Part shown: positions 3,592 to 20,750 of the stretch, one piece after another
Position numbering within the stretch: the stretch's first letter is position 1
Layout: each line of letters opens with the position of its first letter
Origin: an uncultured bacterium
GTDB lineage: Bacteria > Omnitrophota > Gorgyraeia > Duberdicusellales > CBEUCJ01
NCBI GenBank assembly: GCA_965541615.1
Contig: CBEUCJ010000003.1
Span: forward strand, 107,830 to 131,829
DNA length: 24,000 bases
Reading direction: 5' to 3'
Made by a program: the position numbers and the translations under genes
The notes under the pieces: model-generated
The model's input: only the letters and a program-made list of their open reading frames with translations
What the model was told of the DNA's origin: nothing
The model's database searches: none

Positions 3592-4988
3592 CTTTCCAAT
3601 AGAAATTTATCTGCAGATTTAAATTTAACAGGATAATTTCCTGTAAAACAAGCAACACAATAATCTTCCTTTCTAAATTTCACGCAAGACAACATACCTT
3701 CTAAACTCAAATAACCTAAAGTATCTACATCTAAAAACTTCCTTATCTCTTCTAAAGAACAGTTGTTAGCTATTAGTTCTTTCTGTGAAGGAAAATCTAT
3801 TCCATAAAAACAGGGAAACTTATGAGGAGGACAAGAGATTCTTAGATGGACTTCTTTTGCTCCCAATTCTCTGAATTGTTTTATTCTCTTTTTAGAAGTA
3901 GTCCCTCTTACAATAGAATCGTCTACAATTACTACTCTTTTACCTTTTATTACCTCTTTTAAAATATTGAACTTAACTCTTACCCCTAAATCTCTTATTT
4001 TTTGATGAGGCTGAATAAAAGTCCTTCCTACATAATGATTTCTAATAATTCCGATTTCTAAAGGAATCTTTGAAAAATGACTAAAACCTAAAGCTGCTGA
4101 ATTTCCTGAATCTGGAACTCCTATCACAAAATCTGCTTCTACTGGATGCTCAAAAGCTAACCTCTCTCCTAACTTTTGTCTTACCAAATGCACTGTTTCT
4201 CCAAAGATTACAGAATCTGGTCTTGCAAAGTATATGTGTTCAAATATACAAAAAGCTTTTCTTTTAGTCTCTTTAAAAGGTTTATAAGAATGCAAACCAT
4301 CTTTATCTATTACTACTATCTCACCAGGTAGAACTTCTCTTATGAAATCTGCCTCTATTAAATCTAAAGCACATGTTTCTGAAGCTAAACACAGACTTGA
4401 ATCTTTTTTGCCAATACAAAGAGGTCTAAAACCTAAAGGGTCTCTTACACCTATTATCCTCTTTTCATCCATCAATAACAAAGAATAAGCTCCTTTAACT
4501 TTACTTAAAGCATAAATCAACTTCTCTATTAAATCGTGTTTCTTGCATCTTAACATTAAATGAAGGATTATTTCTGAATCTGAACTCGTCTGAAAAATTG
4601 CTCCTTGAGATTCTAACTTTTCTCTTAATTCCAAAGAATTTACTAAATTTCCATTATGAGCTATAGCTAAACTCCCTTTTAGATAATCTACAAATAAAGG
4701 TTGAGCGTTTCTAATGTGTGAAGAGCCTGTTGTAGAATATCTTACATGACCTATAGCAAAATGACCTTTAAGATTTTTAAGATTCTCTTCATTGAATACA
4801 TCAGAAACCAAACCCATTCCTTTATGGACAAAAAATCTTTTCCCATCACAAGATACTATTCCACAAGACTCTTCGCCTCTATGCTGAAGAGCATAAAGCC
4901 CTAAAAAAGTAAGGTAACTTGCATTATCTATTCCATAAATTCCAAAAAGACCACAATACTCTTTAGGATAGTAAAGCATCTTTGACAA
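3588..4988 (-). CDS. purF: Amidophosphoribosyltransferase, B. subtilis-like type with propeptide and Fe-S cysteines
   Basis: 466 aa. An 11-residue leader (MSKMLYYPKEY) precedes the Ntn catalytic Cys in CGLFGIYG. PRTase motif VVIVDDSIVRGTT. Cysteines sit in positions typical of 4Fe-4S PurF (CIFEHIYFARPDS, ISCPP, CVACFTGNYP). The start at 4988 is TTG with GGAG 5 nt upstream. Overlaps the purQ 3' end by 26 nt. Confidence 0.95.
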   Translation of the reverse strand: MSKMLYYPKEYCGLFGIYGIDNASYLTFLGLYALQHRGEESCGIVSCDGKRFFVHKGMGLVSDVFNEENLKNLKGHFAIGHVRYSTTGSSHIRNAQPLFVDYLKGSLAIAHNGNLVNSLELREKLESQGAIFQTSSDSEIILHLMLRCKKHDLIEKLIYALSKVKGAYSLLLMDEKRIIGVRDPLGFRPLCIGKKDSSLCLASETCALDLIEADFIREVLPGEIVVIDKDGLHSYKPFKETKRKAFCIFEHIYFARPDSVIFGETVHLVRQKLGERLAFEHPVEADFVIGVPDSGNSAALGFSHFSKIPLEIGIIRNHYVGRTFIQPHQKIRDLGVRVKFNILKEVIKGKRVVIVDDSIVRGTTSKKRIKQFRELGAKEVHLRISCPPHKFPCFYGIDFPSQKELIANNCSLEEIRKFLDVDTLGYLSLEGMLSCVKFRKEDYCVACFTGNYPVKFKSADKFLLER

Positions 4989-5739
4989 ATTTTACTCCGT
5001 TTTTAAAGATTAATAAACCTGGTTCTTCTTTTATCTCTCTTTTTTCAATCCAAAAAGGAGACTGCAAACTAAAACTGTATCTTTCTGGATGAGGCATTAA
5101 ACCTAAGATTTTGCCCTCTCTATCAGTAATTCCTGCAATGTTAAGTATAGAACCATTAGGATTTGCATCTGGAGTTATTTCTCCATTGACATCAGCATAC
5201 TGAAAGACGATTTGAGATTGTATTTGAGAAATAACTTCTTTTTCTGCGCAAAACCTTCCTTCAGCATGAGCTATGGGCAAAGAAATTATTTGAGGTAAAT
5301 CCTTTGTCCAGATGCAATTAGTTTTATTCACTTTTAAATACACCCAAGTATCAATAAACCTTGCACAGGTATTTAAAACTAAACTTACCTTTTGCTCAGA
5401 AAAAGGATAAAAAGGCAATATTCCTGCTTTTACTAAAACTTGAAAACCATTGCATATTCCCAAAATAAGTTTTCCATCATCATAAAATTTTTTAAGATCT
5501 TTGCCTATTAGATATTTTATCTGATTAGCCAATATTCTGCCTGCAGAGATATCATCTCCATAAGTGAATCCTCCAGGAATACAAAGAATATGATAGTTAT
5601 GTAAGAGTTTAGGATTCTCAATTAATCTTTTAATAGACACAAATTCAGATTCAGCTCCTACATAATCAAAACAAAATTTAGTCTCTTTATCACAGTTTGT
5701 GCCAGGTGCTACAAGGATTAAAACCTTAGGTCTTTTCAT
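4963..5739 (-). CDS. purQ: FGAM synthase, glutamine amidotransferase subunit
   Basis: 258 aa. Triad-type GATase motifs GICNGFQ, HAEGRF and MPHPER. Sits 3 nt downstream of purL. Confidence 0.92.
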   Translation of the reverse strand: MKRPKVLILVAPGTNCDKETKFCFDYVGAESEFVSIKRLIENPKLLHNYHILCIPGGFTYGDDISAGRILANQIKYLIGKDLKKFYDDGKLILGICNGFQVLVKAGILPFYPFSEQKVSLVLNTCARFIDTWVYLKVNKTNCIWTKDLPQIISLPIAHAEGRFCAEKEVISQIQSQIVFQYADVNGEITPDANPNGSILNIAGITDREGKILGLMPHPERYSFSLQSPFWIEKREIKEEPGLLIFKNGVKFVKDALLS

Positions 5740-5742
5740 CCT

Positions 5743-8649: not shown

Positions 8650-9942
8650 TTAAATTCCTAACCTTTCATAAATTTTGGAGACATTCTTTAAGTATTCAGC
8701 TGGAGAAAAGATCTTTTGGATTTCCTTCTTCTTTAAGATCTTTTTTATTAATGGATGATTTAGAACTTCATTTTTAAAATCCTTATTTTCTCTTTGAACT
8801 TTAAAAGCTAACTCTTGTACTAAATCATAACTATCTTGGCGCTTTAAACCTTTTTCAGTGAGAGCTAACATCAATCTTTGAGAAAAAATTAAACCTTTAT
8901 TCAATTTTAGATTCTCTTTCATTTTTTTTGTATCTATCTCTAAATCTTTAACTATCTCTGTCATCTTTTGAGTCATATAAATTATTAGATGAAAAGTATC
9001 AGGGAATATTACTCTTTCTACAGAAGAATGAGAAATATCTCTCTCATGCCATAAAACTATATTTTGGAGACTTGCTTCTAAATAAGCTCTTATAAGTCTT
9101 GCCAAACCACACATTCTCTCACACAAAATAGGGTTTCTTTTATGAGGCATAGCAGATGATCCTTTTTGTCCTTTATAAAAAGGCTCAAACACCTCTCTAA
9201 CTTCTGTTCTCTGCAAGTGCCTAATCTCTGTAGCAAATCTTTCAAAACAACTTGCTAATATTGCTATGCAACTCAATAAATAACTAAATCTATCTCGAGG
9301 TATTACTTGAGTAGTTATAGAAGCAGGTTTAAGTCCTAGTTTTTTTAATACGTATTCTTCTACAGAAGGAGGTAAATGTGAGTAAGTTCCTACAGCTCCT
9401 GAAATCTTGCCTACACTTATTTCTTCTTTTACACTTTTCAAAAACTTTTGATTTCTTCTTATCTCATCTAAAAATAAAGCGAATTTCAATCCTAAAGAAT
9501 AAACCTCAGCGTGAATTCCGTGAGTTCTTCCCACACACAGAGTAAATTTATATTTTTTTGCCTTAGATTTAACGAGTAACGCTAATTCTTCTAAATGTTT
9601 TAATAATAAATTTAAACTCTCTTTTAATTGAATACATAAAGAAGTATCCAAAACATCGTTACTAGTTAAACCCCAATGAAAATATTTAGAATCTTTATTT
9701 AAATGAGAACAAACTTCAAGAACAAAAGCTACCACATCGTGATGAGTGGTTTTTTCTCTTTCTTTTATTCCATCCAAATTAAACTTAGCATTCTTTTTAA
9801 TTCTTTTTAGAACCTCCTTAGAGATTCTGCCCTCTTTACATAAGGCTTCTAAAACCAATAATTCTATTTTTAACATCAAATTAAACTTGTATTCAGCTGA
9901 CCAGATCTTTTCTATCTCTGGAATAGAATACCTCTTGATCAT
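8650..9942 (-). CDS. purB: Adenylosuccinate lyase
   Basis: 430 aa. Fumarate-lyase superfamily signature GSSAMPHKRNP. N-terminal MIKRYSIPEIEKIW is typical of PurB. Confidence 0.95.
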   Translation of the reverse strand: MIKRYSIPEIEKIWSAEYKFNLMLKIELLVLEALCKEGRISKEVLKRIKKNAKFNLDGIKEREKTTHHDVVAFVLEVCSHLNKDSKYFHWGLTSNDVLDTSLCIQLKESLNLLLKHLEELALLVKSKAKKYKFTLCVGRTHGIHAEVYSLGLKFALFLDEIRRNQKFLKSVKEEISVGKISGAVGTYSHLPPSVEEYVLKKLGLKPASITTQVIPRDRFSYLLSCIAILASCFERFATEIRHLQRTEVREVFEPFYKGQKGSSAMPHKRNPILCERMCGLARLIRAYLEASLQNIVLWHERDISHSSVERVIFPDTFHLIIYMTQKMTEIVKDLEIDTKKMKENLKLNKGLIFSQRLMLALTEKGLKRQDSYDLVQELAFKVQRENKDFKNEVLNHPLIKKILKKKEIQKIFSPAEYLKNVSKIYERLGI

Positions 9943-10322: not shown

Positions 10323-10892
10323 ATGAAGAATAAATTTGTTATTGATACAAGTATATTTTTAAATGCTCAAACTTTCTTTCTTTTAGGCAAAACCCCTCAA
10401 GAAGCTTTTAAAAATTTCCTGCAAAAAATAAGTCATAAAAAAAGACTTCAATTCTTTATGCCTGTTTCTGTAAAAGAGGAGCTTTTAAAAATTTTAAATC
10501 CTATCTCTATAGATGAAAAATTGTTATTAAGAATGAATTGTGTCTCTCCAAAAAAATATGAATTGAAAGTCCCTGCCTTATTCTTATATGAATTCATAAA
10601 AGAAATGAGGATTAGAATAAACAAAGGGCTCAGAATAGCTGAAAAATTTACACGTAAAGGTCTTAAAAAGGAGGCTCCAGAAGAAAAACTTATAAAAGAC
10701 TTAAGAGATGAATTCAGAGAAGCTTTGAGAAAAGGTATAATAGATAGTTGTCAAGATGTAGATTTGTTATTGTTATCTAAACAATTAAAAGCTAGTTTGA
10801 TAACTGAAGACGAAGGACTAAAAGTTTGGGCAGATAAGTTAGGCATTAGAGTTTTAAATACCAAAGACCTAAAGAGACTATTAGAACTTTAA
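10323..10892 (+). CDS. PIN-like metallonuclease of the UPF0278 / HARP family (homolog of Aquifex aeolicus Aq_880 protein-only RNase P; also annotated 'RNA ligase partner, MJ_0950 family')
   Basis: 189 aa. N-terminal FVIDTSIF (Asp8). An inserted helical segment contains LYEFIKEMRIRINKGLRIAE. C-terminal acidic cluster IIDSCQDVDLLLL...LITEDEGLKVWADKLGI (D141, D145, D147, D163). Size and motif order match my recollection of Aq_880-type HARPs. Confidence 0.65.
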   Translation: MKNKFVIDTSIFLNAQTFFLLGKTPQEAFKNFLQKISHKKRLQFFMPVSVKEELLKILNPISIDEKLLLRMNCVSPKKYELKVPALFLYEFIKEMRIRINKGLRIAEKFTRKGLKKEAPEEKLIKDLRDEFREALRKGIIDSCQDVDLLLLSKQLKASLITEDEGLKVWADKLGIRVLNTKDLKRLLEL

Positions 10893-11833
10893 AGGAAATT
10901 GGAAACTATTTCTTTCGTTAGATCATGAAGGGTAACTATTCCAATAATTTTATTTCCTTTTACTACTGCACACATACTTTGTTTTCTTTCTTGCATCTTA
11001 GCAAATACTTCATCTAGCCTTTCGTTTCTACCTACTTTCATTATAGGCCTAATGTGAGATTGCCATTCGCCTCCTTTATAGAAATAATCAAAAATATTTA
11101 ACATTCCTATTAACTTTGTTTTCCTTACCACAGGATATCTTGTAAATTTATATTTTCTAACCTTATTTAAAACGGATTCTATTTTTTCACTGAATTCTAA
11201 ATAAACCACTTCAGAAATAGGTTTCATTACATCAGAAACACGCTTTTCACCAAAATCAAAAACATCTTCAATAGCTTGGGCTTCTTCTGATTCTAAAACA
11301 CCTTCTTTACGAATTTCTTTTACTAAATTGATTAAGTCTTGCCTTGTTAATTTAGAAAGAGATATCTTTTCTTTAACTATTTTCTTAGAAATAAACTCTG
11401 AGATTCTTTCCAAAACAAATACAAGAGGATTCAATAATTTTGAAAACAAATCCAAATATTTACTTCCTTTTAAAGAAATCTCTTGTGGTCTTAATCTTGC
11501 AATCCTTTTAGGAATTATCTCACAGAATATTAAAATCACAGGTGTTAAAATTAAAGTAGATATAAAAGCAGGATTCTTAACTTTAAGTCTAATGAGAATA
11601 TAAGTAAAAAATACAGAGATAATAATAATGCAAAGATTTGTTCCTACTAAAATGATTGAAAGAAATCTTGAAGGAGATTCTAAAAATTTTAAAGAGATTT
11701 CAGCTGGTTTTATTCCTTTTTCTTTTAAATACTTTAGTCTATAAATATTAGCTGAGATTAAAGCTGTCTCCATACCTGAAAAGAATCCTGCTAAACCTAT
11801 TAATAAAATTATTCCGATAAAAAAACCTATCAT
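10889..11833 (-). CDS. CNNM/CorC-family membrane protein, DUF21 + CBS pair, lacking the C-terminal CorC_HlyC domain
   Basis: 314 aa. FFSGMETAL and FCEIIPKR in the TM region, then two CBS-like segments ending at the C-terminus. 4-nt overlap with the upstream paralog. Its stop codon interlocks with the stop of the convergent gene (TTAA at 10889-10892). Confidence 0.8.
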   Translation of the reverse strand: MIGFFIGIILLIGLAGFFSGMETALISANIYRLKYLKEKGIKPAEISLKFLESPSRFLSIILVGTNLCIIIISVFFTYILIRLKVKNPAFISTLILTPVILIFCEIIPKRIARLRPQEISLKGSKYLDLFSKLLNPLVFVLERISEFISKKIVKEKISLSKLTRQDLINLVKEIRKEGVLESEEAQAIEDVFDFGEKRVSDVMKPISEVVYLEFSEKIESVLNKVRKYKFTRYPVVRKTKLIGMLNIFDYFYKGGEWQSHIRPIMKVGRNERLDEVFAKMQERKQSMCAVVKGNKIIGIVTLHDLTKEIVSNFL

Positions 11834-13047
11834 AACTTTTTAATAATCACAGAAACTATTCTTTTTAAAGTGGCTTTCTCTATCTCAAATTCTATATTCT
11901 TGTATCTTACTTTTTCTCCTGTCTTTGGAATTCTTCCTAAAATATCCAGAATTAAACCTGCTATAGTGTCAAATTCTTCTTCAGGAAGATTTAATTTTAG
12001 CTTTTGATTTATTTCTTTTATTGAAGTCTTGCCACTAACTAAATAAACTTCTTCTTTTAATTTTCTTATAGGAACTTTTGGAAATTCAAATTCATCATAT
12101 ATTTCTCCAAATATCTCTTCTAAAATGTCTTCTAAGGTAACTAAACCAGCTGTGCCTCCATATTCATCTACGACTATGGCTATCCTTTCATTTTTAGAAT
12201 ATAATTCCTTTAACAATTCATCTATCTTCATACTTTCAGGCACAAATATAGGTTCTCTTATAAATTCTGTAAATTTTTTTTGAGGATTTAAAAATACATC
12301 TTTACTGTAAACTACTCCTATTATTTTATCTAAAGACTCTTCATAAATAGGTATTTTTGAAAATTTTACTTTTTTTAAAAATTGAATAAAATCTGATTGC
12401 TCCATATCGATGGGGGCTGCGTGGATATCTATTCTGGGAGTCATTATTTGAGAGACTTCAGTTTCAGTAAATTCTAAAAGTGATCTTATCATCTCTCTTT
12501 CCTTTTTATCCAATACCTTTTCTTTCTCACCTATTTCTATTAAAGCATCAAACTCATCTTCTGTTAAAGTAACGTCTGTTTTTTTCTTAACTGGTCTTAA
12601 AAAAATATCAGTCAAAGATTTCAATAAAGTCCTCACTGGAGAAAATAGATAAAAAGATATCAACAAAAATTGAGAAGAAAAAACGCTAAATTTGAAGGGA
12701 TTCTTTAAGGCTACAGATTTTGGTGTAATCTCTCCAAATATGAGTAATAAAAATGTAACTATTATTATAGAAAGTATTACTCCTTCTCCTTTTAGCAAAG
12801 GGACTAACATTTGAGTAGCTATACCAGAAAAATAAACATTAACTATCATATTTCCTATCAAGATTGTAATAAGGAGACTGTGAGGATCTTTAAGTAATCT
12901 TTTAATTCTCTTTGAACTTCTATATTTTGAGGTTAACTTTCTTAAAGAAACTTTACTTAAAGAAAAGTAAGCGGTCTCAGAGCCAGAATAAAGAGAGGAT
13001 AAAAACAAAAGTAAGATTAAAAGTAGTAAATTCAATATCAATAACAT
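11830..13047 (-). CDS. CNNM/CorC-family (hemolysin-C-like) putative Mg2+/divalent cation transporter, DUF21 + CBS pair + CorC_HlyC domain
   Basis: 405 aa. YSGSETAYFSL, FGEITPKS, a CBS pair (VSQIMTPRIDI ... GLVTLEDILEEIFGEI) and a C-terminal transporter-associated domain. Confidence 0.85.
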   Translation of the reverse strand: MLLILNLLLLILLLFLSSLYSGSETAYFSLSKVSLRKLTSKYRSSKRIKRLLKDPHSLLITILIGNMIVNVYFSGIATQMLVPLLKGEGVILSIIIVTFLLLIFGEITPKSVALKNPFKFSVFSSQFLLISFYLFSPVRTLLKSLTDIFLRPVKKKTDVTLTEDEFDALIEIGEKEKVLDKKEREMIRSLLEFTETEVSQIMTPRIDIHAAPIDMEQSDFIQFLKKVKFSKIPIYEESLDKIIGVVYSKDVFLNPQKKFTEFIREPIFVPESMKIDELLKELYSKNERIAIVVDEYGGTAGLVTLEDILEEIFGEIYDEFEFPKVPIRKLKEEVYLVSGKTSIKEINQKLKLNLPEEEFDTIAGLILDILGRIPKTGEKVRYKNIEFEIEKATLKRIVSVIIKKL

Positions 13048-13050: not shown

Positions 13051-15282
13051 CTAATATTTTAACAAACTAAAGAATATCAAAATATTTAAAAAAAATAACA
13101 AAATACAGACCCAAACTAATCCACATATAGGAATAAAGAAAATTGAAATCCCTAAAGCTCCAAAAGAAGAACCTAAGAGATCTACACTGTAAGTAACAGG
13201 TCCCCAGGATTCTGAATCTTTATATTCTTTAGTAAGTATTTTATTAGCTGTTATGTATTGAGCTGAACCTAAAAATCCGGCTGTAAAAGGCAATAGTAAA
13301 AATATAAATTTTTCAATAAAGAGATGTATAGAGATGTTTTTAAGAAAAAAGGTCAAAATGAGTAAAATTAAAGGATAAAAGCAAATACTCAATTGAATTT
13401 TTAAATAAGAAAAAAATAAATTTTTAAAATTTCTTTTTAAAAATAAATAACCTCCTACAAACAAACCTGTCATATAACTACCAAAAACTGCTCCTATCAT
13501 ATAATAGAGATATCCATATAAGATTTGAAAAAAGAGCAAGATAATTATCTGAAAACTCATTTCAGAAAATCCTGTAGCACATAAAGACATTAAAATCAAT
13601 TTTTTTCTATCAAAAAAGATAAAAGAGATTAAAAATACCCCTAAACTCAAAAATATAAATAACTTAAATAAAAAATTTCTATTTATCTTTTTGAAGACCT
13701 TTCTAAAAACATCTCTAAATTGCTGAGAAAAATATACTATATCTAACCAAAAACAAATTGGAACAAAATCTTTGTTTAAAAAAGTTAAACCAGCTTTTTC
13801 CAATCTTTCTTTAAGGTATGAAATCCTTTCTCCAGACAACCTTTGAAACAAATAAGCCTCATTTAAGTATCTAAGAGTTATCTTTTTCTGAGTTAATTTC
13901 TTAAAAATTTCTTCAGGTCTTTGAGAAAAAATTCCTTTTTGTGTACATCCAATAAAGATAGCATTTTGACCTGGATAGACTATTACTTCCTCAAAAATAG
14001 ATTCTAAAGTATTTTTTATAACACGAAGATATTCAGATAATTCTTTATTTATATAGTTCTCTTGAGAACTTAATTTAAAACTTATAATTCCAGGTATATT
14101 AAGAATTTTTTTTGCTTCTCTAAAGAACTCTTGAGTATAAAATCTATTAAAAGAAAGACTTACAGGCTCAGATATATTTAAAATAATGCAATCATACTTT
14201 GTACTTGCGTTTCTTACAAAATTTACTCCATCACCTATAAAGATATTTACTCTTTTATCTTCATAATACCTTTTAAATTTTGAATACTTTCTTATCAATT
14301 TAAGTTTTTGAACATCTAATTCTATGATATCTATCCTTTCTGGAGCATACTTTAATATTTCTCTTATCATCTGACCTCCCTTTGTTCCTATTAAGAGCAC
14401 TCTTTTAAGGATTGGTAACTGTGAAATTACCAAATGTATGATTTCAGATTCTAACCTTTGAGGAAGAGAAAAACTTAAGATCCCATTCTCTAAAAAACTT
14501 ATCTGTCTGTGTCTTTCTACTACTTGAATGTTAGAATATTTGGTATCTCTTAACTCTAAAATTCTGTATCCTGGTAAAAGCAAACTAAAAAATTTTACAT
14601 TTAATTTTGGACTCAAAAACAAAAGAAAAAAATAGATGCAAAGAAAAGTTACATTAAAAAGTAAAATTCTATTTTTTTTATTAAAAATTATGTTGTAAAC
14701 TGAAACTAAAATTGCCAAAAAAATGCATAAACTCAAAATCCCTATTTTCTGAATGATAATATATCCAAAAATTATTCCTCCTATAGCTGAACCTACTGAC
14801 TCTAAAAGATATGAAAAACCGATCTTTTTGTCTTTTTCTCTGTGAGGATAAACATAACAAGATAAACTAAAATTAACCCCTAAACTTAAGCACACTCCAC
14901 TTAAAATAATTAAACAAAAGCTTAAAATCTTACCTAAAGGTAAGATCTCTCCTAAAAGAGGAGAAAAATTTTTTCTCAAAAAAATACTCAAAATATAAGT
15001 AAGAATTAAAAGGATACTTAAAATAAATAGAGAAAAATTAAGAATATTAATTTTATTCTTAATTTTTTTAATGAAAAAATTTGCTAAAAAACTGCCTATA
15101 CCTGTCCATAACAACCATAAACTTAAAAAAATACCTGAGGCTAATTCATTTCCATAAAATAGAATAAAAGTTAATCTTAAAAGCACTACCTGAAAAGATA
15201 TAGAAATAACTCCTATAAGAACAGGAAATAATTTGAGAAGTTTATTTTTTAATAAAGACCGTGCTGAAGAGGACTCTTCCAT
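13051..15282 (-). CDS. Integral membrane protein with a central spermidine-synthase-like (aminopropyltransferase/SAM-MTase fold) domain flanked by two polytopic TM blocks (the 'fused MFS/spermidine synthase' type)
   Basis: 743 aa. Residues ~1-235 and ~535-743 are strongly hydrophobic. Residues ~238-505 align by eye with the canonical SpeE at 19085-19933: VLLIGTKGGQMIREILKY vs VLIIGGGDGGTAREILKH, IDIIELD vs LDLVEID, IGDGVNFV...YDCIILNISEP vs IQDGIKFV...YDLIFVDSTDP. Confidence 0.8.
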   Translation of the reverse strand: MEESSSARSLLKNKLLKLFPVLIGVISISFQVVLLRLTFILFYGNELASGIFLSLWLLWTGIGSFLANFFIKKIKNKINILNFSLFILSILLILTYILSIFLRKNFSPLLGEILPLGKILSFCLIILSGVCLSLGVNFSLSCYVYPHREKDKKIGFSYLLESVGSAIGGIIFGYIIIQKIGILSLCIFLAILVSVYNIIFNKKNRILLFNVTFLCIYFFLLFLSPKLNVKFFSLLLPGYRILELRDTKYSNIQVVERHRQISFLENGILSFSLPQRLESEIIHLVISQLPILKRVLLIGTKGGQMIREILKYAPERIDIIELDVQKLKLIRKYSKFKRYYEDKRVNIFIGDGVNFVRNASTKYDCIILNISEPVSLSFNRFYTQEFFREAKKILNIPGIISFKLSSQENYINKELSEYLRVIKNTLESIFEEVIVYPGQNAIFIGCTQKGIFSQRPEEIFKKLTQKKITLRYLNEAYLFQRLSGERISYLKERLEKAGLTFLNKDFVPICFWLDIVYFSQQFRDVFRKVFKKINRNFLFKLFIFLSLGVFLISFIFFDRKKLILMSLCATGFSEMSFQIIILLFFQILYGYLYYMIGAVFGSYMTGLFVGGYLFLKRNFKNLFFSYLKIQLSICFYPLILLILTFFLKNISIHLFIEKFIFLLLPFTAGFLGSAQYITANKILTKEYKDSESWGPVTYSVDLLGSSFGALGISIFFIPICGLVWVCILLFFLNILIFFSLLKY

Positions 15283-16304
15283 ATCCCAGGAATAGTGTTA
15301 TTGCAAAATTTACATTTACCTTCTTTATCTATGTTTATCTCTGAGACCATATATCCTAATCTTTTTATCAGAATATTTTTGCAATTAGGACAGTAAGTAT
15401 TCTCCAAAATGTGACCTGGAACATTTCCTATATACACATAATTTAAACCTTCTGATTTCGCAATTTCGCAAGCTTGTTCTAAAGTCTTTAAAGGAGTAGG
15501 AGGGATATTTCTTAATTTATACATAGGGTAAAATTTTGAAAAATGGATAGGAGTCTCAGGTCCTAAATTTTCTCTTATCCACTTGCACATCCTTCTAATA
15601 AGATGAGCAGAATCATTTAAATCTGGGATTACAAGATTTGTGATCTCTATCCATATACCTTCTTTCTTCATCACCTTTAAAGAATTTAATACTTCATCTA
15701 AATTACCTCCTACTATATTATGGTAAAAATTAGGATCGAATCCTTTTAAATCTACATTAGCTGCATCTATGAATTTGCAGAGTTCTCTTAAAGGTGCTTC
15801 GTTAATGTAACCATTTGTAACCATTAGATTCAGTATACCTTTTTCCTTCGCTAACTTTGCAGTCTCTAACATAAATTCATAAAATATGATTGGCTCTGAA
15901 TAAGTATAAGCTATTGTAGGAGCCTTATACTTTAAAGCTAACTTTACAACTTGAAGGGGTGTTAAAAATTTGGAACTAGCATCTTCTGGCCAGATTTGAG
16001 AAATATCTGAATTTTGGCAAAATTTGCAACTCAGATTACAACCTGGTGTAGCCAAAGAAAATGCTGTTTTTGAAGGTAAAACATGATAGAAGGGTTTTTT
16101 CTCGATTGGATCTTGATGGAGAGCAATAATTCTGCCATACACTAAAGTATAAAGTATACCTCTTCTATTCTCTCTAACTTTACATTTTCCTCTTTGAGCA
16201 TCATTCAACACACATTTAAAAGGACACAACAAACACTGCACAACTTCATCTGATAATTTTCTGTACCATTTAGCTTCTTTTATATACTCATTATATTCAC
16301 TCAT
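15249..16304 (-). CDS. Radical SAM enzyme of the AmmeMemoRadiSam / PFL-activase-like type
   Basis: 351 aa. CNLSCKFC (CX3CX2C, nt 16017-16040). N-terminal CLLCPFKC...GKCKVRENRRGILYTLVYGRIIALHQDPIEKKPFYH and C-terminal CPNC...CKFC blocks are as I remember for this family. Overlaps the downstream gene by 34 nt. Confidence 0.8.
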   Translation of the reverse strand: MSEYNEYIKEAKWYRKLSDEVVQCLLCPFKCVLNDAQRGKCKVRENRRGILYTLVYGRIIALHQDPIEKKPFYHVLPSKTAFSLATPGCNLSCKFCQNSDISQIWPEDASSKFLTPLQVVKLALKYKAPTIAYTYSEPIIFYEFMLETAKLAKEKGILNLMVTNGYINEAPLRELCKFIDAANVDLKGFDPNFYHNIVGGNLDEVLNSLKVMKKEGIWIEITNLVIPDLNDSAHLIRRMCKWIRENLGPETPIHFSKFYPMYKLRNIPPTPLKTLEQACEIAKSEGLNYVYIGNVPGHILENTYCPNCKNILIKRLGYMVSEINIDKEGKCKFCNNTIPGIWKSPLQHGLY

Positions 16305-16306
16305 AA

Positions 16307-17053
16307 TTATTTCTGACTTAATTCACATTTATGACATTCTAAACACCTTATACATTCAGATTGAATTATATTTTTTTCAAGAGTTATTATCCCTTTAGGA
16401 CATTTCTGAATGCATATTTTACAATCTTTATTTTTGCATTTAAATATGTATTTAGTTAGAGAAAAATAACTTAAAATCTTAAAAAAGGCTCCTGTAAAAC
16501 AAAGATATCTGCACCAAAAGTAGGGGATAAAAAAATTTAAAATTAAAAGGATAAAAAACCATACTTTTTTTAGAAAAGAAGGTGGGAACTTAGAATATTT
16601 AAAAAATGGTTCTAACTCAACCATAGAATAATTCCCTTTGGAAATAAGAAATATCCCTATAGCTAAAAATAAAATTTTAAAATAGAAAAGGAAAATAAAT
16701 CTGCCTTGAAGAAAACTTAGAGGCATCTTAAAAAAATCTCTTATCTTTTTTAAATACCAGTTTATTATTCCAAAAGGGCAAATCCATCCACAAAAAAATC
16801 TTCCCCAAAATAAATGTGAAAAAAATGCTAATAAAAGAAAGATAAAAAATGATATTGAACTCATTAGGACTGAAAAATTCAACTTCAAAAGATAATAAAT
16901 ATGAACGATACTCACAAAGTATCCTAAGTATATTCCAAAAAATATGAAATTTATAAAGAGCAATAAGTTTCTTAAAGGGATTTTAAAATGATAAAAAAGA
17001 TAACTGCATAAAAATAAAGATACTATCAGAATACTCTTAGTTAATTCTTGCAT
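16307..17053 (-). CDS. Membrane polyferredoxin (NapH/MauN-like 4Fe-4S binding protein)
   Basis: 248 aa with several TM helices. Loop motifs FFCGWICPFG and FWCRYLCFTG. C-terminal cysteine clusters CKNKDCKICIQKCP and CIRCLECHKC. Confidence 0.75.
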   Translation of the reverse strand: MQELTKSILIVSLFLCSYLFYHFKIPLRNLLLFINFIFFGIYLGYFVSIVHIYYLLKLNFSVLMSSISFFIFLLLAFFSHLFWGRFFCGWICPFGIINWYLKKIRDFFKMPLSFLQGRFIFLFYFKILFLAIGIFLISKGNYSMVELEPFFKYSKFPPSFLKKVWFFILLILNFFIPYFWCRYLCFTGAFFKILSYFSLTKYIFKCKNKDCKICIQKCPKGIITLEKNIIQSECIRCLECHKCELSQK

Positions 17054-17058: not shown

Positions 17059-17820
17059 TTATGGACTATTTATAAGTTTCAGAACTTGAGAATGTAAATA
17101 TTTATTAGAAGCTAAGTAACCTCTTTTTTTCACACTCCATTTGCTTCCATCTAAATATGTAAATTTGCCTCCTGCCTCTTCTATTAAAATCTTACCTGCT
17201 GCACAATCCCAAGCATAATCTGAGAATTCTATAGCAATATCTAATTTCCCAGAGGCTAAATAAGAAAGAACTCTTGCAGAACTCCCAAACATTCTTATAT
17301 TAAAGACGCTTTCTGAAATTCTTCCTAAAACTTTTAAAATTCTATCTTTATCTATCCTTATAGCTGAATCAAAAGAAACTGAAGCTTTTTTAAGAATTTT
17401 AACTTGAGAGACTTTTATTCTCTTTCTATTCAAAAAACTTCCTTTATTTTTCTGAGCCCAATACAATTCTTTAGTAAAAGGAAGATAAATTACACCTAAA
17501 ATAATTTCATCCTTGTAGCTTAAAGCAATTGAAACTCCAAATATTTCTATTCTGTGAATATAGTTGTGAGTACCATCTAAGGGATCTATTATCCATAAAA
17601 ATTCTTCTTTTTCTATCAAATCTTTTTCTGTCTCTTCTGAAAGTATCTGATGAGTAGGAAACTTCTTTTTTAAGATATCTACTATTATCTTTTCTGCTGT
17701 AAGGTCTATTTCGGTTGCTAAATTTCTATCTCCCTTTTTTATTATCTTTTTAACTTTACCAAAATTCTTTAAAAGGTAATCTCCTGCTTTTTGTGCAGCT
17801 AGTATTGCTGTCTTAAGCAT
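17059..17820 (-). CDS. suhB: Inositol monophosphatase family protein (compact archaeal/thermophile-type IMPase, possibly dual IMPase/FBPase)
   Basis: 253 aa. Motifs EETE, WIIDPLDGTHNY and WDCAAG. The size resembles the MJ0109/TM1415-type enzymes. Confidence 0.85.
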   Translation of the reverse strand: MLKTAILAAQKAGDYLLKNFGKVKKIIKKGDRNLATEIDLTAEKIIVDILKKKFPTHQILSEETEKDLIEKEEFLWIIDPLDGTHNYIHRIEIFGVSIALSYKDEIILGVIYLPFTKELYWAQKNKGSFLNRKRIKVSQVKILKKASVSFDSAIRIDKDRILKVLGRISESVFNIRMFGSSARVLSYLASGKLDIAIEFSDYAWDCAAGKILIEEAGGKFTYLDGSKWSVKKRGYLASNKYLHSQVLKLINSP

Positions 17821-17966: not shown

Positions 17967-18122
17967 TCATTTTTTTCTTAATTCTTCTAATATAGCTTTT
18001 AAGAGTCTCTCTATATTTTCTAACAACTCTATCTGTCTTTTTTGAATCTTTTGTTGCTCTGAACCTAACTTTTGAGCTTGTTCAGCTATTTTTTTCATAT
18101 CAAAAAGACTTTTGAAGTCCAT
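17967..18122 (-). CDS. Small hypothetical protein, 51 aa, predicted all-helical / coiled-coil
   Basis: Below the ORF-track size cutoff. GGAGGT SD sits 5 nt upstream of the ATG at 18122, with a near-consensus promoter upstream. Product: MDFKSLFDMKKIAEQAQKLGSEQQKIQKRQIELLENIERLLKAILEELRKK. Confidence 0.5.
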   Translation of the reverse strand: MDFKSLFDMKKIAEQAQKLGSEQQKIQKRQIELLENIERLLKAILEELRKK

Positions 18123-18155: not shown

Positions 18156-18183
18156 ATTATACTCCTCAAAAAATTATTGACAA
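18156..18183 (-). promoter_or_regulatory. Sigma70-type promoter TTGTCA-N16-TATAAT driving the 51-aa ORF and probably the long minus-strand operon
   Basis: On the minus strand the -35 is at 18183..18178 and the -10 at 18161..18156. This is ~27 nt upstream of the SD-preceded ATG at 18122. Confidence 0.6.
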
Positions 18184-18204
18184 AGATTTTTAAATTATTA
18201 TAAT
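18177..18204 (+). promoter_or_regulatory. Consensus sigma70-type promoter TTGACA-N16-TATAAT for the speH-pdaD-speE-speB operon
   Basis: Perfect TTGACA (18177-18182) and perfect TATAAT (18199-18204). The predicted leader of ~45 nt ends in GAGGAGGT before the TTG start at 18256. Confidence 0.7.
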
Positions 18205-18255: not shown

Positions 18256-18630
18256 TTGAAAGGATTAGGAACTCATATATTAGCAGAATTTATAGATTGT
18301 GACTCACATTTATTAAACTCACCTCAATTTATAAAAGAGCTCCTGGAAACCGCTGCCCTCAAAGCAGGAGCTACTATTATAGAAAGTTTTTTTCACCAAT
18401 TTAATCCTCATGGAGTAAGTGGAATTGTAGTCATTGCTGAATCTCATCTATCTATTCATACTTGGCCTGAGTTTGGTTTTGCAGCTGTAGATATATTCAC
18501 GTGTGGCCAAAGAGTAAAGCCTGAAATAGCTTTTGAATATATGAAAGAAAAATTAAAAGCTCAGAAAGTAGTTACAAAGAAACTTATAAGAGGAGATTCC
18601 AAATTTCTTGTTTTTAATAAAAACTTCTAA
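18256..18630 (+). CDS. speH: S-adenosylmethionine decarboxylase proenzyme, small class 1 (SpeH/SpeD type), pyruvoyl-dependent
   Basis: 124 aa. GTHILAEF start and the self-processing motif VIAESHLSIHTWPE (Ser63, nt 18442-18444). TTG start 7 nt after GGAGGT. Confidence 0.92.
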   Translation: MKGLGTHILAEFIDCDSHLLNSPQFIKELLETAALKAGATIIESFFHQFNPHGVSGIVVIAESHLSIHTWPEFGFAAVDIFTCGQRVKPEIAFEYMKEKLKAQKVVTKKLIRGDSKFLVFNKNF

Positions 18631-19094
18631 TGTTTGAACTACCTAAAAATTTTTTTTTAGTAAAGGGAAATGCTGAAGGATACTCTCCTCTGAATGCTTT
18701 TGATTCTGCTCTCCTCAAATCTGGTATTGGAAATACCAATTTAATTAAAGTTACAAGTATAATCCCACCGGGTTCCAAACGCATTAGACCTAAAAAAGCT
18801 TATCCTGGAAGTCTTTTACCTTGTGCTTATTCTTATAAAATATCTGATATCCCAGGAGAAATAATATCTGCTTGTGTATGTGTGGCTTTACCTGAAGAGG
18901 AATCTGCGCCTGGAGTGATTATGGAGTTTTCTTCTACTGGTCGCAAAGACTTAGCAGAAGAAATTGTGAAAAAAATGGCAGAAGAAGCTATGAATATAAG
19001 AGGATTAAAAATTAAAGAGATGTTTGTAACCTCTGTTCAACATAGAGTGAAAAAAATAGGCTGTGTGTTTGCAGGAGTAGTATTGTGGGGTTAG
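18630..19094 (+). CDS. pdaD: Pyruvoyl-dependent arginine decarboxylase
   Basis: 154 aa. N-terminal FFLVKGNAEGYSPLNAFDSALLKSGIGNTNLIKVTSIIPPG, with the presumed cleavage serine Ser43 at nt 18756-18758. Its ATG overlaps the speH stop (TAATG). Confidence 0.88.
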   Translation: MFELPKNFFLVKGNAEGYSPLNAFDSALLKSGIGNTNLIKVTSIIPPGSKRIRPKKAYPGSLLPCAYSYKISDIPGEIISACVCVALPEEESAPGVIMEFSSTGRKDLAEEIVKKMAEEAMNIRGLKIKEMFVTSVQHRVKKIGCVFAGVVLWG

Positions 19095-19933
19095 GAGAAA
19101 TTTGGTTCACTGAAAAGCATAATCCAGCTTCAGGTTTCTCCTTAAAAGTAAATAAATTCATTTTTGAAAAAAAATCTAAATATCAAAGGATCGTAATTTT
19201 TGATAATAATGATTATGGTAGAATTTTTCTATTAGATGATCTTATAATGCTTACACAAAAAGATGAGTTTACTTATCATGAAATGCTTACACATCCTGCT
19301 CTCTTTACCCACAAAAATCCCAAAGATGTTTTAATAATTGGTGGAGGAGATGGTGGAACAGCAAGAGAGATTTTAAAACATAAAACTGTAAAACACTTAG
19401 ATTTAGTAGAAATAGATAAAGATGTTATAGAAACTTCTAAGAAGTATTTAAAATTTTGTGGAAAAGCTTTTAATGACAAAAGGCTAAAAGTTATTATTCA
19501 AGATGGTATAAAATTTGTTAAAAATACAGATAAAAAATATGATTTAATTTTTGTAGATTCTACAGACCCTATAGGGATGGCAAAAGGATTATTTTCAAAA
19601 AATTTTTATAAAAATTGCTACAAGATTCTGAAAGAAGATGGAATCTTGACTACACTTTCAGAGTCTCCTTTTAATGATCCTAAATGGACCAAAGAAATTT
19701 TTAAAAATTTAAAAGCAGTATTTAAAAATGTATTTTTGTATTTGAGTTTTGTACCTGCTTATCCATCAGGAGTTTGGAGTTTTTGTATGGCGAGTAAAAT
19801 CTATCATCCTTTAAAAGATTTCCAAGAAAAAAGATATAAAAATTTTGATTCAAAGAATAAATATTATAATAAAGAAATCCACTTTGCCTGTTTTTGCCTC
19901 CCTGAATTTGTAAAAGACTTAATAAATGCCTAA
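19085..19933 (+). CDS. speE: Polyamine aminopropyltransferase (spermidine synthase family; amine acceptor not determinable)
   Basis: 282 aa. Motifs YQRIVIF, VLIIGGGDGGTAREILKH, VEID and FVDSTDPIG. GTG start at 19085 follows AGGAG. 10-nt overlap with pdaD. Confidence 0.92.
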   Translation: MGLGEIWFTEKHNPASGFSLKVNKFIFEKKSKYQRIVIFDNNDYGRIFLLDDLIMLTQKDEFTYHEMLTHPALFTHKNPKDVLIIGGGDGGTAREILKHKTVKHLDLVEIDKDVIETSKKYLKFCGKAFNDKRLKVIIQDGIKFVKNTDKKYDLIFVDSTDPIGMAKGLFSKNFYKNCYKILKEDGILTTLSESPFNDPKWTKEIFKNLKAVFKNVFLYLSFVPAYPSGVWSFCMASKIYHPLKDFQEKRYKNFDSKNKYYNKEIHFACFCLPEFVKDLINA

Positions 19934-20750
19934 AACTTTCTTAGGTACGCAAAACTTTGAAAATCCTGAGATTAAAATAATAGGGATTCCTTTAGATATT
20001 ACAAGCAGTTTTCTGAATGGAACAAGGTTTGGTCCTCAAAATATAAGAATAGCTTCTGAAAATTTAGAAACTTATAGCGTAGTTCTGAAAAAAGATTTGA
20101 AAGATAAAAAGATCTCTGATTTAGGAGATATAGAGATTTGCAGTGATATTAAGAAAGCTTTAAAAATGATAGAGAATAAAATAGATAGAGAGCTTAAGAG
20201 TGATGCTAAGTTGATACTTATAGGCGGAGAACACACTTTAAGTTTGGCTAGTATAAAGAGTTTTTTGAAAAAATTTCCTAAATTAAGCCTAATATGGTTC
20301 GATGCCCATTTAGATTTAAGAGATTCTTATCAAAATAATAAACTTTCCCATGCTACAGTCTTAAGAAGAATTTCTGAAATTTCTGATATTAAAATTTTTC
20401 ATATAGGATTTAGATCAGCTATAAAAGAAGAATTAGAATTTGCTAAGAAGAGAGTAACTCTTTTAAAAGCCTCAAAAAAAGAGATTGTGAAGATAAAGAG
20501 GAGTTTAAAATATGAACCAGTTTATGTGAGCTTCGATGTAGATTTTATAAACCCTGATTCTGTGAGAAGTGTAGGATGTCCTGAACCAGGAGGGGTTTAT
20601 TTTAATGAAGCCATAGAGCTAATGTATTCTTTAAAAGGATTAAATATTGTAGGTGCAGATTTTGTAGAATACAATGGTTTAATTGATCCTTATTTTACAG
20701 ATGGAACAAAAATAGCTAAGTTAATAAGAGAGTTTTTGCTCTTTATGTAA
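19926..20750 (+). CDS. speB: Ureohydrolase of the arginase family (agmatinase or N1-aminopropylagmatine ureohydrolase)
   Basis: 274 aa. Mn-ligand blocks GGEHTLS, DAHLDLRD and SFDVDFINP. 8-nt overlap with speE. Confidence 0.88.
   Translation: MPKTFLGTQNFENPEIKIIGIPLDITSSFLNGTRFGPQNIRIASENLETYSVVLKKDLKDKKISDLGDIEICSDIKKALKMIENKIDRELKSDAKLILIGGEHTLSLASIKSFLKKFPKLSLIWFDAHLDLRDSYQNNKLSHATVLRRISEISDIKIFHIGFRSAIKEELEFAKKRVTLLKASKKEIVKIKRSLKYEPVYVSFDVDFINPDSVRSVGCPEPGGVYFNEAIELMYSLKGLNIVGADFVEYNGLIDPYFTDGTKIAKLIREFLLFM

Follow-up and report, generated by a model that had tools for sequence, protein, structure and literature searches.

Radical SAM enzymes of family TIGR04337 ("AmmeMemoRadiSam system radical SAM enzyme") were defined earlier, by bioinformatics, together with AMMECR1 and Memo. 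The window analysed here, a single stretch of 24,000 nucleotides, encodes such an enzyme between two membrane proteins. The 351-aa product of its radical SAM gene (15249–16304, minus strand) is a bona fide, full member of TIGR04337, with a score of 374.6 bits (cutoff 220). The initial annotation had described it as PFL-activase-like; the Radical_SAM domain with a CX3CX2C motif is indeed present at residues 89–96 (nt 16017–16040), and its family is more exactly TIGR04337. Further invariant cysteines are located at residues 24, 27, 31 and 41 (nt 16182–16235), with a second set at residues 305, 308, 331 and 334 (nt 15303–15392). All these cysteines are kept in 50 of 50 sequences, except for Cys308, which is kept in 43 of 50.

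The three genes and their products

The radical SAM gene is flanked by a NapH/NosR-type gene (16307–17053, minus strand, 248 aa) and an MFS-fold/SpeE-like gene (13051–15282, minus strand, 743 aa), with a gap of 2 nt at 16305–16306 on one side and an overlap of 34 nt at 15249–15282 on the other, so that the three consecutive minus-strand genes lie exactly where they had been placed. No alternative in-frame start (ATG, GTG or TTG) was found just downstream of the ATG of the 743-aa gene; the overlap is therefore likely to be genuine. It is not conserved as such, because the closest relative, locus L082 (67% identity), has a gap of 12 nt at the same junction. A scan of the window for SD sites revealed none before any of the three genes and AAGGAGG before the operon-leading genes (the 51-aa ORF, speH, purE and purD), in agreement with the initial annotation. 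It had read these features as pointing to coupled translation and fixed stoichiometry, both of which are conjectural; the features do not set the trio apart. Internal genes of the window all lack an SD, including those for the inositol-monophosphatase-family protein (IMPase), both CNNM proteins, PvlArgDC and agmatinase, which means that SD absence is not specific to the trio; and, as tight packing and absent SD sites span seven genes, packing alone cannot delimit it. The IMPase gene (17059–17820, minus strand; PF00459, 220 bits) ends 5 nt before the NapH-like gene, while the first of two CNNM/CorC-family genes (11830–13047, minus strand; Pfam CNNM and CBS, plus CorC_HlyC) starts 3 nt downstream of the 743-aa gene and overlaps by 4 nt with the second (10889–11833, minus strand; Pfam CNNM and CBS). 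No terminator-like sites were found at the gene junctions.

The minus-strand operon probably starts with the 51-aa ORF (17967–18122, minus strand), which has a strong AAGGAGG SD, is conserved in loci L001 and L082 and gave no match in a Pfam search. Upstream of it are overlapping, divergent sigma-70-like promoters (18156–18204, both strands), assigned by consensus match only (11/12 and 12/12): TTGTCA-16-TATAAT on the minus strand, with its −35 and −10 hexamers at 18156–18183, is directed at the module operon, and TTGACA-16-TATAAT on the plus strand at the speH-PvlArgDC-speE-agmatinase operon. Across the region as a whole, promoter-like sites are not in excess.

The 248-aa protein matches Pfam Fer4_5 (37.5 bits, cutoff 22) and has around five hydrophobic segments. 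Of the CxxxCP loops ascribed to it, the first is confirmed (CX3CP, residues 88–93, nt 16775–16792), but the second reads CX3CF (residues 181–186); the eight C-terminal cysteines, in a 2x[4Fe-4S]-like arrangement, are present at residues 206–243 (nt 16325–16438). Scores with the NosR C-terminal and NapH HMMs are far under their cutoffs. We propose that the protein supplies electrons to the radical SAM enzyme, although it is not evident that NapH-type quinol-level electrons have a low enough potential for a radical SAM cluster.

In its AF2 model (pLDDT 89.5, pTM 0.90), the 743-aa protein shows an MFS fold of 14 TM segments, in which an inserted SpeE-derived domain separates TM7 from TM8. TM1–6 make up the N-terminal half (residues 7–200, nt 14683–15264) and are followed by TM7 (residues 204–235, nt 14578–14673), the SpeE-like domain (residues 239–500, nt 13783–14568), TM8 (residues 535–556, nt 13615–13680) and TM9–14, which make up the C-terminal half (residues 559–741, nt 13060–13608), all encoded on the minus strand. 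The SpeE fold is thus located between two membrane blocks, as had been noticed at the outset, with PF01564 matching residues 279–424 (87.2 bits). Foldseek comparison with SpeE structures gave TM-scores near 0.75 (target-length normalisation). The two membrane blocks are homologous, forming two 6-TM halves (hhalign probability 99.1%, E=4.7e-19), and each of the top 50 matches in a fold search with the C-terminal block is an MFS transporter. Two acidic residues are found within the membrane part of the MFS domain, Glu161 (the same in 65 of 78 homologues) and Asp701 (in 76 of 78). The family comprises 2,682 representatives of 50%-identity clusters at E<=1e-30. HMM searches matched all three proteins (Fer4_5, Radical_SAM and PF01564), and the radical SAM enzyme falls in a family already named.

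An outward orientation is predicted for the SpeE-like domain, because the count of lysines plus arginines is six-fold higher in the loops assigned inside, seen independently in both halves; inside and outside loops alternate, and the topology is derived from the positive-inside rule together with the repeat logic rather than from coordinates. The radical SAM enzyme of the window does not have a signal peptide, since an in-frame TGA sits seven codons 5' of its ATG. The catalytic domains would thus be on opposite faces of the membrane.

Conservation of the module across genomes

A homologue of the radical SAM enzyme (45–56% identity) is encoded within 3 kb of the membrane-protein homologue in 54 of 80 species-level loci and, considering only the 33 loci flanked by 5 kb or more on each side, within 5 kb of it in 26. 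The 54 loci are spread over about ten bacterial phyla and several archaeal lineages, with bacteria from Omnitrophota, Planctomycetia, Acidobacteriota, Thermodesulfobacteriota, Zixibacteria and Clostridia-labelled MAGs and archaea from Altiarchaeota, Woesearchaeota, Aenigmatarchaeota and others; the two genes are, as the gene-neighbourhood survey showed, syntenic in both prokaryotic domains. At least five different gene orders are present, which argues for selection rather than for inheritance of one arrangement. The reverse test also speaks for the link, the membrane gene being next door in 7 of 25 radical SAM-centred metagenome loci. On the other hand, an adjacent radical SAM gene is absent from 7 of the 33 fully flanked loci and also from a 44%-identical relative (P0003). 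The neighbourhoods support a functional link between the two genes, and to this extent the initial proposal fares well. Direct action of the radical SAM enzyme on the membrane protein is doubtful in the window, given the predicted extracytoplasmic SpeE-like domain and the signal-less enzyme.

The third partner is variable, usually a membrane redox protein, and has been subject to recurrent non-orthologous replacement. Such a protein (Fer4_5/NosR-like, DsbD_2 or polyferredoxin) is encoded in 25 of the 80 loci. Fer4_5-type proteins occur in 13, and in 11 a DsbD_2 gene lies between the radical SAM and membrane genes; in a twelfth it immediately precedes the membrane gene, at the end of a contig. 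As in the window, Fer4_5/NosR-like genes are found directly upstream of the radical SAM gene in L004, L021 and L058, a position taken in L017 by a NosR-like 207-aa ORF, while L082 retains the window gene order. The recurrence of redox proteins beside the pair fits the membrane electron conduit that had been envisaged. In many lineages, Memo-AMMECR1 fusions (neighbouring ones pass TIGR04336 with 267.7 against 26 and TIGR04335 with 180 against 99) and DUF362 join the module. Neither Memo nor AMMECR1 was found in the window or the 21-kb locus L001, and DUF362 is likewise absent from the window.

The three genes represent, in this window, a module that is conserved in many phyla of bacteria and archaea, and we are confident that this module is a real functional unit. 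In the literature searched, no characterised pathway was found for it, as the initial annotation had supposed.

Proposed mechanism and alternatives

We favour, with moderate confidence, an explanation in which a TIGR04337 radical SAM enzyme, an MFS-SpeE protein and a membrane redox protein work together. In the mechanism we infer, for which the specific order of steps and the transferase activity are tentative, the cytoplasmic iron-sulphur domain of the NapH-like protein would supply the radical SAM enzyme with electrons at the inner membrane face, and the latter would use a 5'-deoxyadenosyl radical to initiate the modification of a substrate, either a small cationic or a membrane-associated one. 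This substrate, and/or SAM or dcSAM, would be carried by the MFS domain through the membrane, where the outward SpeE-like domain may catalyse a SAM-type alkyl transfer (methyl, aminopropyl or aminocarboxypropyl) onto the substrate. Exported Memo, AMMECR1 and DUF362 proteins could contribute extra steps in other lineages. A point against this mechanism is that neither SAM nor dcSAM is known to be available outside the cytoplasmic membrane.

A rather unlikely alternative is that the MFS-SpeE protein chiefly exports SAM or dcSAM, or recovers 5'-deoxyadenosine or MTA, with an outward SpeE-like domain that only docks the adenosyl ligand, serving AmmeMemoRadiSam enzymes outside the cytoplasmic membrane; the window would then contain a derived version, its radical SAM enzyme having returned to the cytoplasm. 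Export is suggested by the N-termini of the membrane-protein-linked radical SAM homologues, 28 of 53 being Tat-like and 14 of 53 Sec- or anchor-like (assigned from regular expressions and hydropathy alone), with one passing the TIGR01409 TAT HMM, and by the adjacent Memo-AMMECR1 fusions, 24 of 24 of which have a signal peptide or lipobox. In a crude NJ tree, the linked enzymes also group apart from the signal-less, Memo-only copies. However, signal-less enzymes remain paired with the membrane protein in the window, L004, L017, L021, L042 and L058, and the exported systems of L085 and L095–L098 do without an adjacent MFS-SpeE gene. An MFS fold with conserved intramembrane acids would suit a cationic cargo, and the adenosyl-binding hallmarks (Gly-rich loop, Glu321 and Asp351) are kept in 95–99% of sequences while the catalytic SpeE residues are not; yet the family-specific invariant motifs NRFYTxEFF, SxYGN and NxDxxP in the SpeE-like domain suggest an active site instead of a mere dock.

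It is improbable that the locus belongs to ordinary polyamine metabolism, with the 743-aa protein as a membrane-anchored PRK03612-type polyamine aminopropyltransferase that works with the speH/speE/agmatinase operon and CNNM (PaeA-like) exporters, and the radical SAM and ferredoxin genes as unrelated passengers in a long housekeeping operon. The best HMM matches are polyamine aminopropyltransferases (NF002956, 112 bits; TIGR00417, 89.5 bits) and the PDB profile search found Pyrobaculum and Thermus enzymes (1e-38 to 1e-40; Pyrobaculum SpeE 4e-40), but all equivalog scores are far under cutoff (for example, 112 against 472) and characteristic SpeE residues are replaced, as described below. The divergent promoter region is common to the module operon and the complete polyamine operon (SAM decarboxylase, pyruvoyl arginine decarboxylase, canonical SpeE and agmatinase; 18256–20750, plus strand; Pfam, L001 and L082), the downstream CNNM genes show weak NCBIfam similarity to PaeA, and to GldE, under the cutoffs, and the operon-wide lack of SD sites singles out no trio. 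Against this, a canonical speE is already present 3.8 kb away, the prediction places the SpeE-like domain outside the cytoplasm, and none of these neighbours recurs: IMPase accompanies the module in the window lineage alone (L001, L082 and L084) and in 0 of 80 genome loci, the CNNM pair is absent from the other 80 loci, and no polyamine-operon homologues are near the module in L002–L081, whereas the radical SAM gene is there in 54. IMPase and the CNNM pair, although co-operonic, were thus rejected as conserved partners, and the polyamine operon is lineage-specific context, outside the conserved module.

That a PFL-AE-type enzyme installs a protein radical on the membrane protein, or on an unlinked glycyl-radical enzyme, is barely credible: PFL-activating enzymes are the nearest characterised relatives, with E. 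coli PFL-AE as the only solved homologue (at only E=1.7e-8), and Balaji & Aravind speculated that the conserved cysteine of AMMECR1 could receive an organic radical (PMC2034487), but all activase HMMs are far below cutoff (63.9 against 231.75 bits for PFL-AE), no glycyl-radical enzyme is encoded in the window or among recurrent neighbours, inspection of the 743-aa protein, as opposed to a systematic scan, revealed no RVxG-type motif, and its conserved outer-loop glycine (FYGNE) would be across the membrane from the window enzyme.

Comparison with SpeE and AmmeMemoRadiSam

The label aminopropyltransferase-like holds for the fold of the 743-aa protein, but not for its signature residues, and no SpeE equivalog cutoff is reached. 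In SpeE, the acidic residue of GGG(D/E)G recognises dcSAM, while the membrane-protein family has Val, Ile, Ala or Leu there; the window loop, GTKGGQ, also lacks this acid and is degenerate with respect to the GGGxGG of the family. The first catalytic aspartate of the SpeE DxxDP motif is an asparagine in the window protein and in 46 of 78 sequences. The window lineage also departs at otherwise conserved positions (R353V, H289L, P292L and Y319I); with these changes and the degenerate Gly-rich loop, its SpeE-like domain may be altered or inactive. For the module as a whole, the common definition of TIGR04337 with AMMECR1 and Memo makes it a variant of the already named, though functionally uncharacterised, AmmeMemoRadiSam system.

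Operon context and conserved neighbours

Three minus-strand open reading frames, read directly from the ORF listing, encode the NapH-like protein (16307-17053, 248 aa), the radical SAM enzyme (15249-16304, 351 aa) and the MFS-SpeE fusion (13051-15282, 743 aa), as the initial annotation had it; the 2-nt gap and the 34-nt overlap reported between them are also present. The radical SAM enzyme, previously described as PFL-activase-like, turned out to be a full-score member of a different family. It reaches 374.6 bits (cutoff 220) on TIGR04337, the "AmmeMemoRadiSam system radical SAM enzyme", aligning with profile positions 1-335 of 349, whereas the activase models stay far under cutoff (TIGR02493, 63.9 versus 231.75; TIGR02494, 53.9 versus 174.35). 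The CX3CX2C motif (C89/C93/C96) is invariant in 50/50 aligned homologues, as are two extra cysteine sets, C24/C27/C31/C41 and C305/C331/C334; C308 is found in 43/50. Its sole solved relative in the PDB is E. coli PFL-AE (E=1.7e-8).

A survey of gene neighbourhoods, proposed as a check on the initial annotation, showed that co-occurrence of the radical SAM and membrane-protein genes recurs. An alignment of 23 membrane-protein homologues served as query, and 80 loci were taken from contigs of one genome per species. They come from bacteria (including Omnitrophota, Planctomycetia, Acidobacteriota, Thermodesulfobacteriota, Zixibacteria and KSB1) and archaea (including Altiarchaeota, Woesearchaeota, Aenigmatarchaeota and genomes labelled Methanosarcinales). 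In 54 of the 80, a TIGR04337-type gene is no more than 3 kb from the membrane gene, its product being 45-56% identical to the window enzyme; where at least 5 kb is available on both sides, it is found within 5 kb of the membrane gene in 26 of 33 loci. By our estimate, a gene present once in a genome a few megabases long would lie next to the membrane gene by chance in well under 1% of cases. The functional linkage of the TIGR04337 enzyme with the MFS-SpeE fusion is conserved.

Gene order varies. The radical SAM gene may be followed directly by the membrane gene, or by a DsbD_2 gene and then the membrane gene (11 loci; a twelfth breaks off upstream of DsbD_2, where its contig ends). In three loci (L004, L021 and L058) the membrane gene is convergent with a NosR-like gene followed by the radical SAM gene, and in Acidobacteria it is convergent with a run of polyferredoxin, DUF362, radical SAM and Memo-AMMECR1 genes. 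Archaeal versions also contain Memo-AMMECR1. Assigned by Pfam and NCBIfam, the Memo-AMMECR1 neighbours pass both TIGR04336 and TIGR04335, the others being DUF362, DsbD_2, FMN_bind plus Fer4_5 proteins and polyferredoxins; membrane redox proteins have been recruited repeatedly beside the radical SAM and MFS-SpeE genes. AMMECR1 is present in 26/80 related loci and Memo in 24/80, each time fused to AMMECR1. Scans of the window ORFs and of the 21-kb locus L001 gave no match to AMMECR1 (TIGR04335) or Memo (TIGR04336).

When the survey was reversed, starting from the radical SAM enzyme in metagenome contigs, the membrane gene was adjacent in 7/25 non-self loci and only Memo and/or AMMECR1 in 8/25; the MFS-SpeE protein is therefore a frequent, but not universal, partner of the TIGR04337 family. 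In single ORFs of 840-853 aa (L095 5989-8550, L096 76-2637, L097 2967-5489 and L098 58-2580), an N-terminal TM anchor is joined to the radical SAM enzyme, Memo and AMMECR1, and these single-polypeptide fusions are strong evidence that the three act together. A DUF362 protein with a Tat signal is encoded directly upstream of the radical SAM gene in 15 loci (L045-L079, Acidobacteria; e.g., L061 15064-16074), and likewise in several metagenome contigs (L087-L090, L093, L108 and L109). This uncharacterised protein is a further conserved component, absent from the window. An NJ tree of the radical SAM enzymes was crude, carried no support values and was taken as a hint only.

Translation signals and gene packing do not set the trio apart. 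The three genes lack a Shine-Dalgarno (SD) sequence and AAGGAGG precedes operon-leading genes, as first described, but every other internal gene of the window lacks one likewise. Nor does packing mark a boundary: tight spacing runs on at both sides, with an IMPase-family gene ending 5 nt upstream of the trio and, downstream, a 3-nt gap, a first CNNM/CorC gene, a 4-nt overlap and a second. Given this packing, a near-perfect promoter-like site (-35/-10 hexamers, 18156-18183) upstream of a 51-aa ORF and no terminator-like site at any gene junction, the minus-strand transcription unit probably comprises seven genes. L082, the closest relative (67% identity), has a 12-nt gap in place of the 34-nt overlap. 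SD absence and gene overlap were rejected as trio-specific evidence, the former being an operon-wide trait and the latter not kept in this relative.

The 51-aa ORF (17967-18122, minus strand), with a strong AAGGAGG sequence, is apparently the first gene of the seven-gene operon; L082 also keeps it (5760-5915), and Pfam gives no match. At 18156-18204, two divergent, overlapping sigma-70-like promoters, both near-perfect (11/12 and 12/12 matches), face the trio operon and a speH-PvlArgDC-speE-agmatinase operon, respectively. Co-regulation of the trio operon with polyamine and dcSAM synthesis is possible, in the window lineage only. Outside that lineage, no IMPase, CNNM or polyamine genes lie near the module in the 80 other loci, and all three were rejected as module parts. 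Immediately downstream, next to the membrane SpeE-like gene, come the two tandem CNNM/CBS genes (10889-13047, minus strand), whose products weakly resemble PaeA, a polyamine exporter (157 bits versus a cutoff of 500), and GldE (300 versus 376). The lower third of the window is occupied by a minus-strand purine-biosynthesis run (purE, purD, purM, purF, purQ, PurL and purB, 822-9942), which is ordinary context; its PurL has 968 aa and also a weak PurS Pfam match. GC content is 25-35% across 1-kb windows and about 29% overall. For one gene, adenylosuccinate lyase, the nearest relatives are named proteins of Candidatus Omnitrophota MAGs (52-56% identity), which points, for this single gene, to a deep Omnitrophota-like lineage.

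Fold, topology and active site of the MFS-SpeE protein

The SpeE-like domain does lie between two membrane blocks, with PF01564 matching residues 279-424 (87.2 bits, cutoff 22.9). An AlphaFold2 model of the whole 743-aa protein, calculated from 23 sequences (pLDDT 89.5, pTM 0.90), contains seven helices, the SpeE-like alpha/beta domain, including its N-terminal beta domain, and seven further membrane helices. Foldseek retrieved SpeE structures only (TM-scores about 0.75, normalised to target length), and a PDB profile search gave the Pyrobaculum SpeE (4e-40) and the Thermus enzyme (3e-38). Residues 9-201 (TM1-6) are homologous to approximately 556-742 (TM9-14), with an hhalign probability of 99.1% (E=4.7e-19). 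The C-terminal block was also modelled by itself (pLDDT 87.7), and the best 50 PDB fold matches of that model are all MFS transporters, among them ferroportin, G6PT, VMAT2, NorC and PepT, the matches being weak (E 0.04-0.5, TM-scores about 0.5 normalised to query). Pfam searches with the isolated membrane blocks gave nothing at E<=10, and no MFS match. Because the halves are homologous and the C-terminal block matches MFS transporters alone, the protein, as modelled, is of an MFS-like 6+2+6 design, in which the SpeE-like domain sits between the linker helices TM7 and TM8.

Among 78 homologues, the number of lysines plus arginines per loop is 1.4-3.6 for loops assigned inside and 0.0-0.9 for those assigned outside, an alternation that holds independently in both halves; the sole exception is the very short C-terminal tail (0.35). 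From this positive-inside pattern and the 6+2+6 arrangement, both termini are predicted to be inside and the SpeE-like domain outside the cytoplasm. The family is large, with 2,682 representatives of 50%-identity clusters at E<=1e-30. One locus, L032, has two paralogous MFS-SpeE genes about 3 kb apart (610-2883 and 5989-8406).

Beyond the fold, the label aminopropyltransferase-like could not be upheld. With SpeE aminopropyltransferases (PF01564; among them the membrane-anchored PRK03612/NF002956 type and enzymes of Thermus and Pyrobaculum, PDB 1UIR, 3ANX and 7XIF) the protein shares the entire fold including the N-terminal beta domain, and with PRK03612 also a homologous N-terminal membrane block. 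A Gly-rich loop, E321 at the ribose-binding Glu position, D351 and a second acidic residue preceding P373 (E372 in the window, acidic in 66/78 sequences) are kept across the family. The window protein differs in staying under all equivalog cutoffs (NF002956, 112.4 versus 472; NF002010, 93.7 versus 260; TIGR00417, 89.5 versus 249.55). In the family, the acidic column of GGG(D/E)G (E/D in 7XIF and 1UIR), the residue at which SpeE holds the aminopropyl amine of dcSAM, is V/I/A/L. The first catalytic Asp, at the first DxxDP position, is mostly Asn (N in 46/78, D in 17/78 and H in 8/78; N in the window). A second 6-TM half follows the domain, which is itself predicted to be extracytoplasmic; dcSAM is made in the cytoplasm.

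The family has invariant motifs of its own, NRFYTxEFF, SxYGN and NxDxxP in the domain and FYGNE and YGYxY in outer loops. A further motif, Y-x-x-[E/D]-x-x-G-x-x-x-G, occurs in TM5 and again in the repeat of TM5, and places E161 and D701 within the membrane. The window protein and homologues P0002 and P0003 form a divergent branch, with a degenerate Gly loop (G-T-K-G-G-Q in the window) and several substitutions at otherwise conserved positions.

Electron carriers, apparently exported partners and possible roles

The NapH-like protein was thought to carry CxxxCP loops and a C-terminal cysteine set. One CX3CP motif (CGWICP, residues 88-93) and eight C-terminal cysteines are there, but the second motif is CX3CF. 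The protein matches Fer4_5 (PF12801, 37.5 bits, cutoff 22) and shares with the NapH/NosR/MauN family this CX3CP membrane motif and the eight-Cys ferredoxin-like tail. Its counterpart in Omnitrophota loci is a NosR-like neighbour that has a periplasmic FMN_bind domain. NapGH is a quinol dehydrogenase, and NosR is proposed to donate electrons to N2O reductase. The window protein differs in falling far under the cutoffs of the family models (TIGR02163, NapH/MauN, 43.8 versus 213; NF007013, 41.8 versus 234; NF046105, NosR, 56.3 versus 1000), in its second motif and in having no FMN_bind domain. No nap or nos genes occur among the scanned window ORFs or the genes called in L001, and a PDB search gave no structure matching the protein.

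Signals for export were called by regular expression and hydropathy. Of 53 linked radical SAM homologues, 28 have Tat-like and 14 Sec- or anchor-like N-termini (loci L002-L081 and L085-L100; e.g., L018 8850-9986), and one that was checked passes the TAT-signal model TIGR01409. Memo-AMMECR1 fusions beside the membrane protein have a signal peptide or lipobox in 24/24 cases, archaeal copies included (L017 and L039-L079, 24 loci; e.g., L066 3019-4557). The window enzyme has no signal peptide, and its N-terminus cannot extend further, as an in-frame stop lies seven codons upstream; most of the other signal-less enzymes (L004, L017, L021 and L058) are paired with Fer4_5/NosR-like proteins. Exported partners, as called from their N-termini, agree with the predicted outward-facing position of the SpeE-like domain. 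The literature searched holds no description of exported radical SAM enzymes of the TIGR04337 family.

We propose that electrons reach the radical SAM cluster at the membrane from the NapH-like protein, and that the enzyme would modify a substrate that is cationic or membrane-associated. The MFS part may move the substrate and/or the adenosyl cofactor across the membrane, and the outward-facing domain would perform, or support, SAM-type alkyl transfer. In the main rival reading, the membrane protein would handle cofactor, exporting SAM or retrieving 5'-dA for an extracytoplasmic radical SAM system. HMM cutoffs, the loss of motifs, the predicted topology and synteny speak against ordinary polyamine synthesis and glycyl-radical activation; no glycyl-radical enzyme partner is among the recurrent neighbours.

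In a wider reading, which we consider unlikely to hold as a whole, radical SAM chemistry would occur outside the cytoplasmic membrane. The MFS-SpeE protein would export SAM/dcSAM or retrieve 5'-deoxyadenosine, and at the outer face it would alkylate a substrate that is lipid-linked or belongs to the envelope. AmmeMemoRadiSam enzymes exported by Tat or Sec, with Memo, AMMECR1 and DUF362, would act on that substrate too, and NapH/NosR-like, DsbD-like or polyferredoxin redox proteins would bring electrons out, the window being a reduced, partly re-internalised version. Were this reading true, it would give a first biochemical handle on Memo and AMMECR1 function.

Comparison with known systems

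NF037959, "fused MFS/spermidine synthase", is a subfamily-level naming model with no known function. Homologues P0004 (52.2 bits) and P0016 (82.5) pass its cutoff of 40, NCBI applies the name to some members, and there is support for an MFS-like fold in the membrane halves. The window protein, in contrast, scores 21.1, and the model, having 480 positions, does not describe the 14-TM architecture of about 750 aa.

The wybutosine pathway (TYW1 radical SAM, TYW2 aminocarboxypropyl transferase and TYW3, of RAGNYA fold) offers an analogy only; the comparison starts from PMC2034487, TYW2 being our addition. Both bring together a radical SAM enzyme, a SAM-dependent alkyl transferase of class I and a RAGNYA protein (AMMECR1, in related loci), a set that resembles a multi-step SAM-consuming modification pathway. 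Homology to TYW1 and TYW2 is at the superfamily level only, and tRNA is an unlikely substrate since the present system is membrane-bound and, as predicted, largely extracytoplasmic.

Closest is the AmmeMemoRadiSam system, defined by TIGR04335 (AMMECR1-like protein A), TIGR04336 (Memo-like protein B) and TIGR04337. The window enzyme is a full-score member of the last, and genuine TIGR04335/TIGR04336 fusions stand beside the membrane protein in 24-26/80 related loci. The window differs in encoding neither AMMECR1 nor Memo and in adding the MFS-SpeE fusion and the Fer4_5 membrane protein, which are outside the defined system; most MFS-SpeE-linked versions also appear exported. Memo and AMMECR1 are ancient, ranging from archaea to humans, and both are linked to human disease. 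Burroughs et al. reportedly revisited the neighbourhood in 2019 (JBC), the abstract tying Memo contexts to nucleotide-base and isoprenoid modification. The AMMECR1/dioxygenase-like/radical-SAM neighbourhood was first described in 2007, AMMECR1 already being termed uncharacterised (Balaji & Aravind, PMC2034487), and an eLife paper speaks of "recently-described Memo-Ammecr1 systems" (PMC7159879). The initial claim that no characterised pathway is built in this way holds for the full-text literature searched, which contains no functional study of the Memo-AMMECR1-radical-SAM system or of a membrane/MFS spermidine synthase.

Since the neighbourhood has been known from 2007 and the searched literature reports no function for it, we rate the trio as a variant of the bioinformatically defined AmmeMemoRadiSam system, not as categorically new; the three-gene version of the window is a minimal form. 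The analysis adds that genes of a large MFS-SpeE fusion family persistently accompany that of the system's radical SAM enzyme, that the partnered versions mostly look exported and that membrane electron carriers have been recruited repeatedly. Together, the MFS-SpeE partnership, apparent export and electron carriers point to chemistry on the membrane or envelope side that needs SAM and reductant, and specific candidates for purification and for gene deletion can now be named for the Memo-AMMECR1-radical-SAM system.
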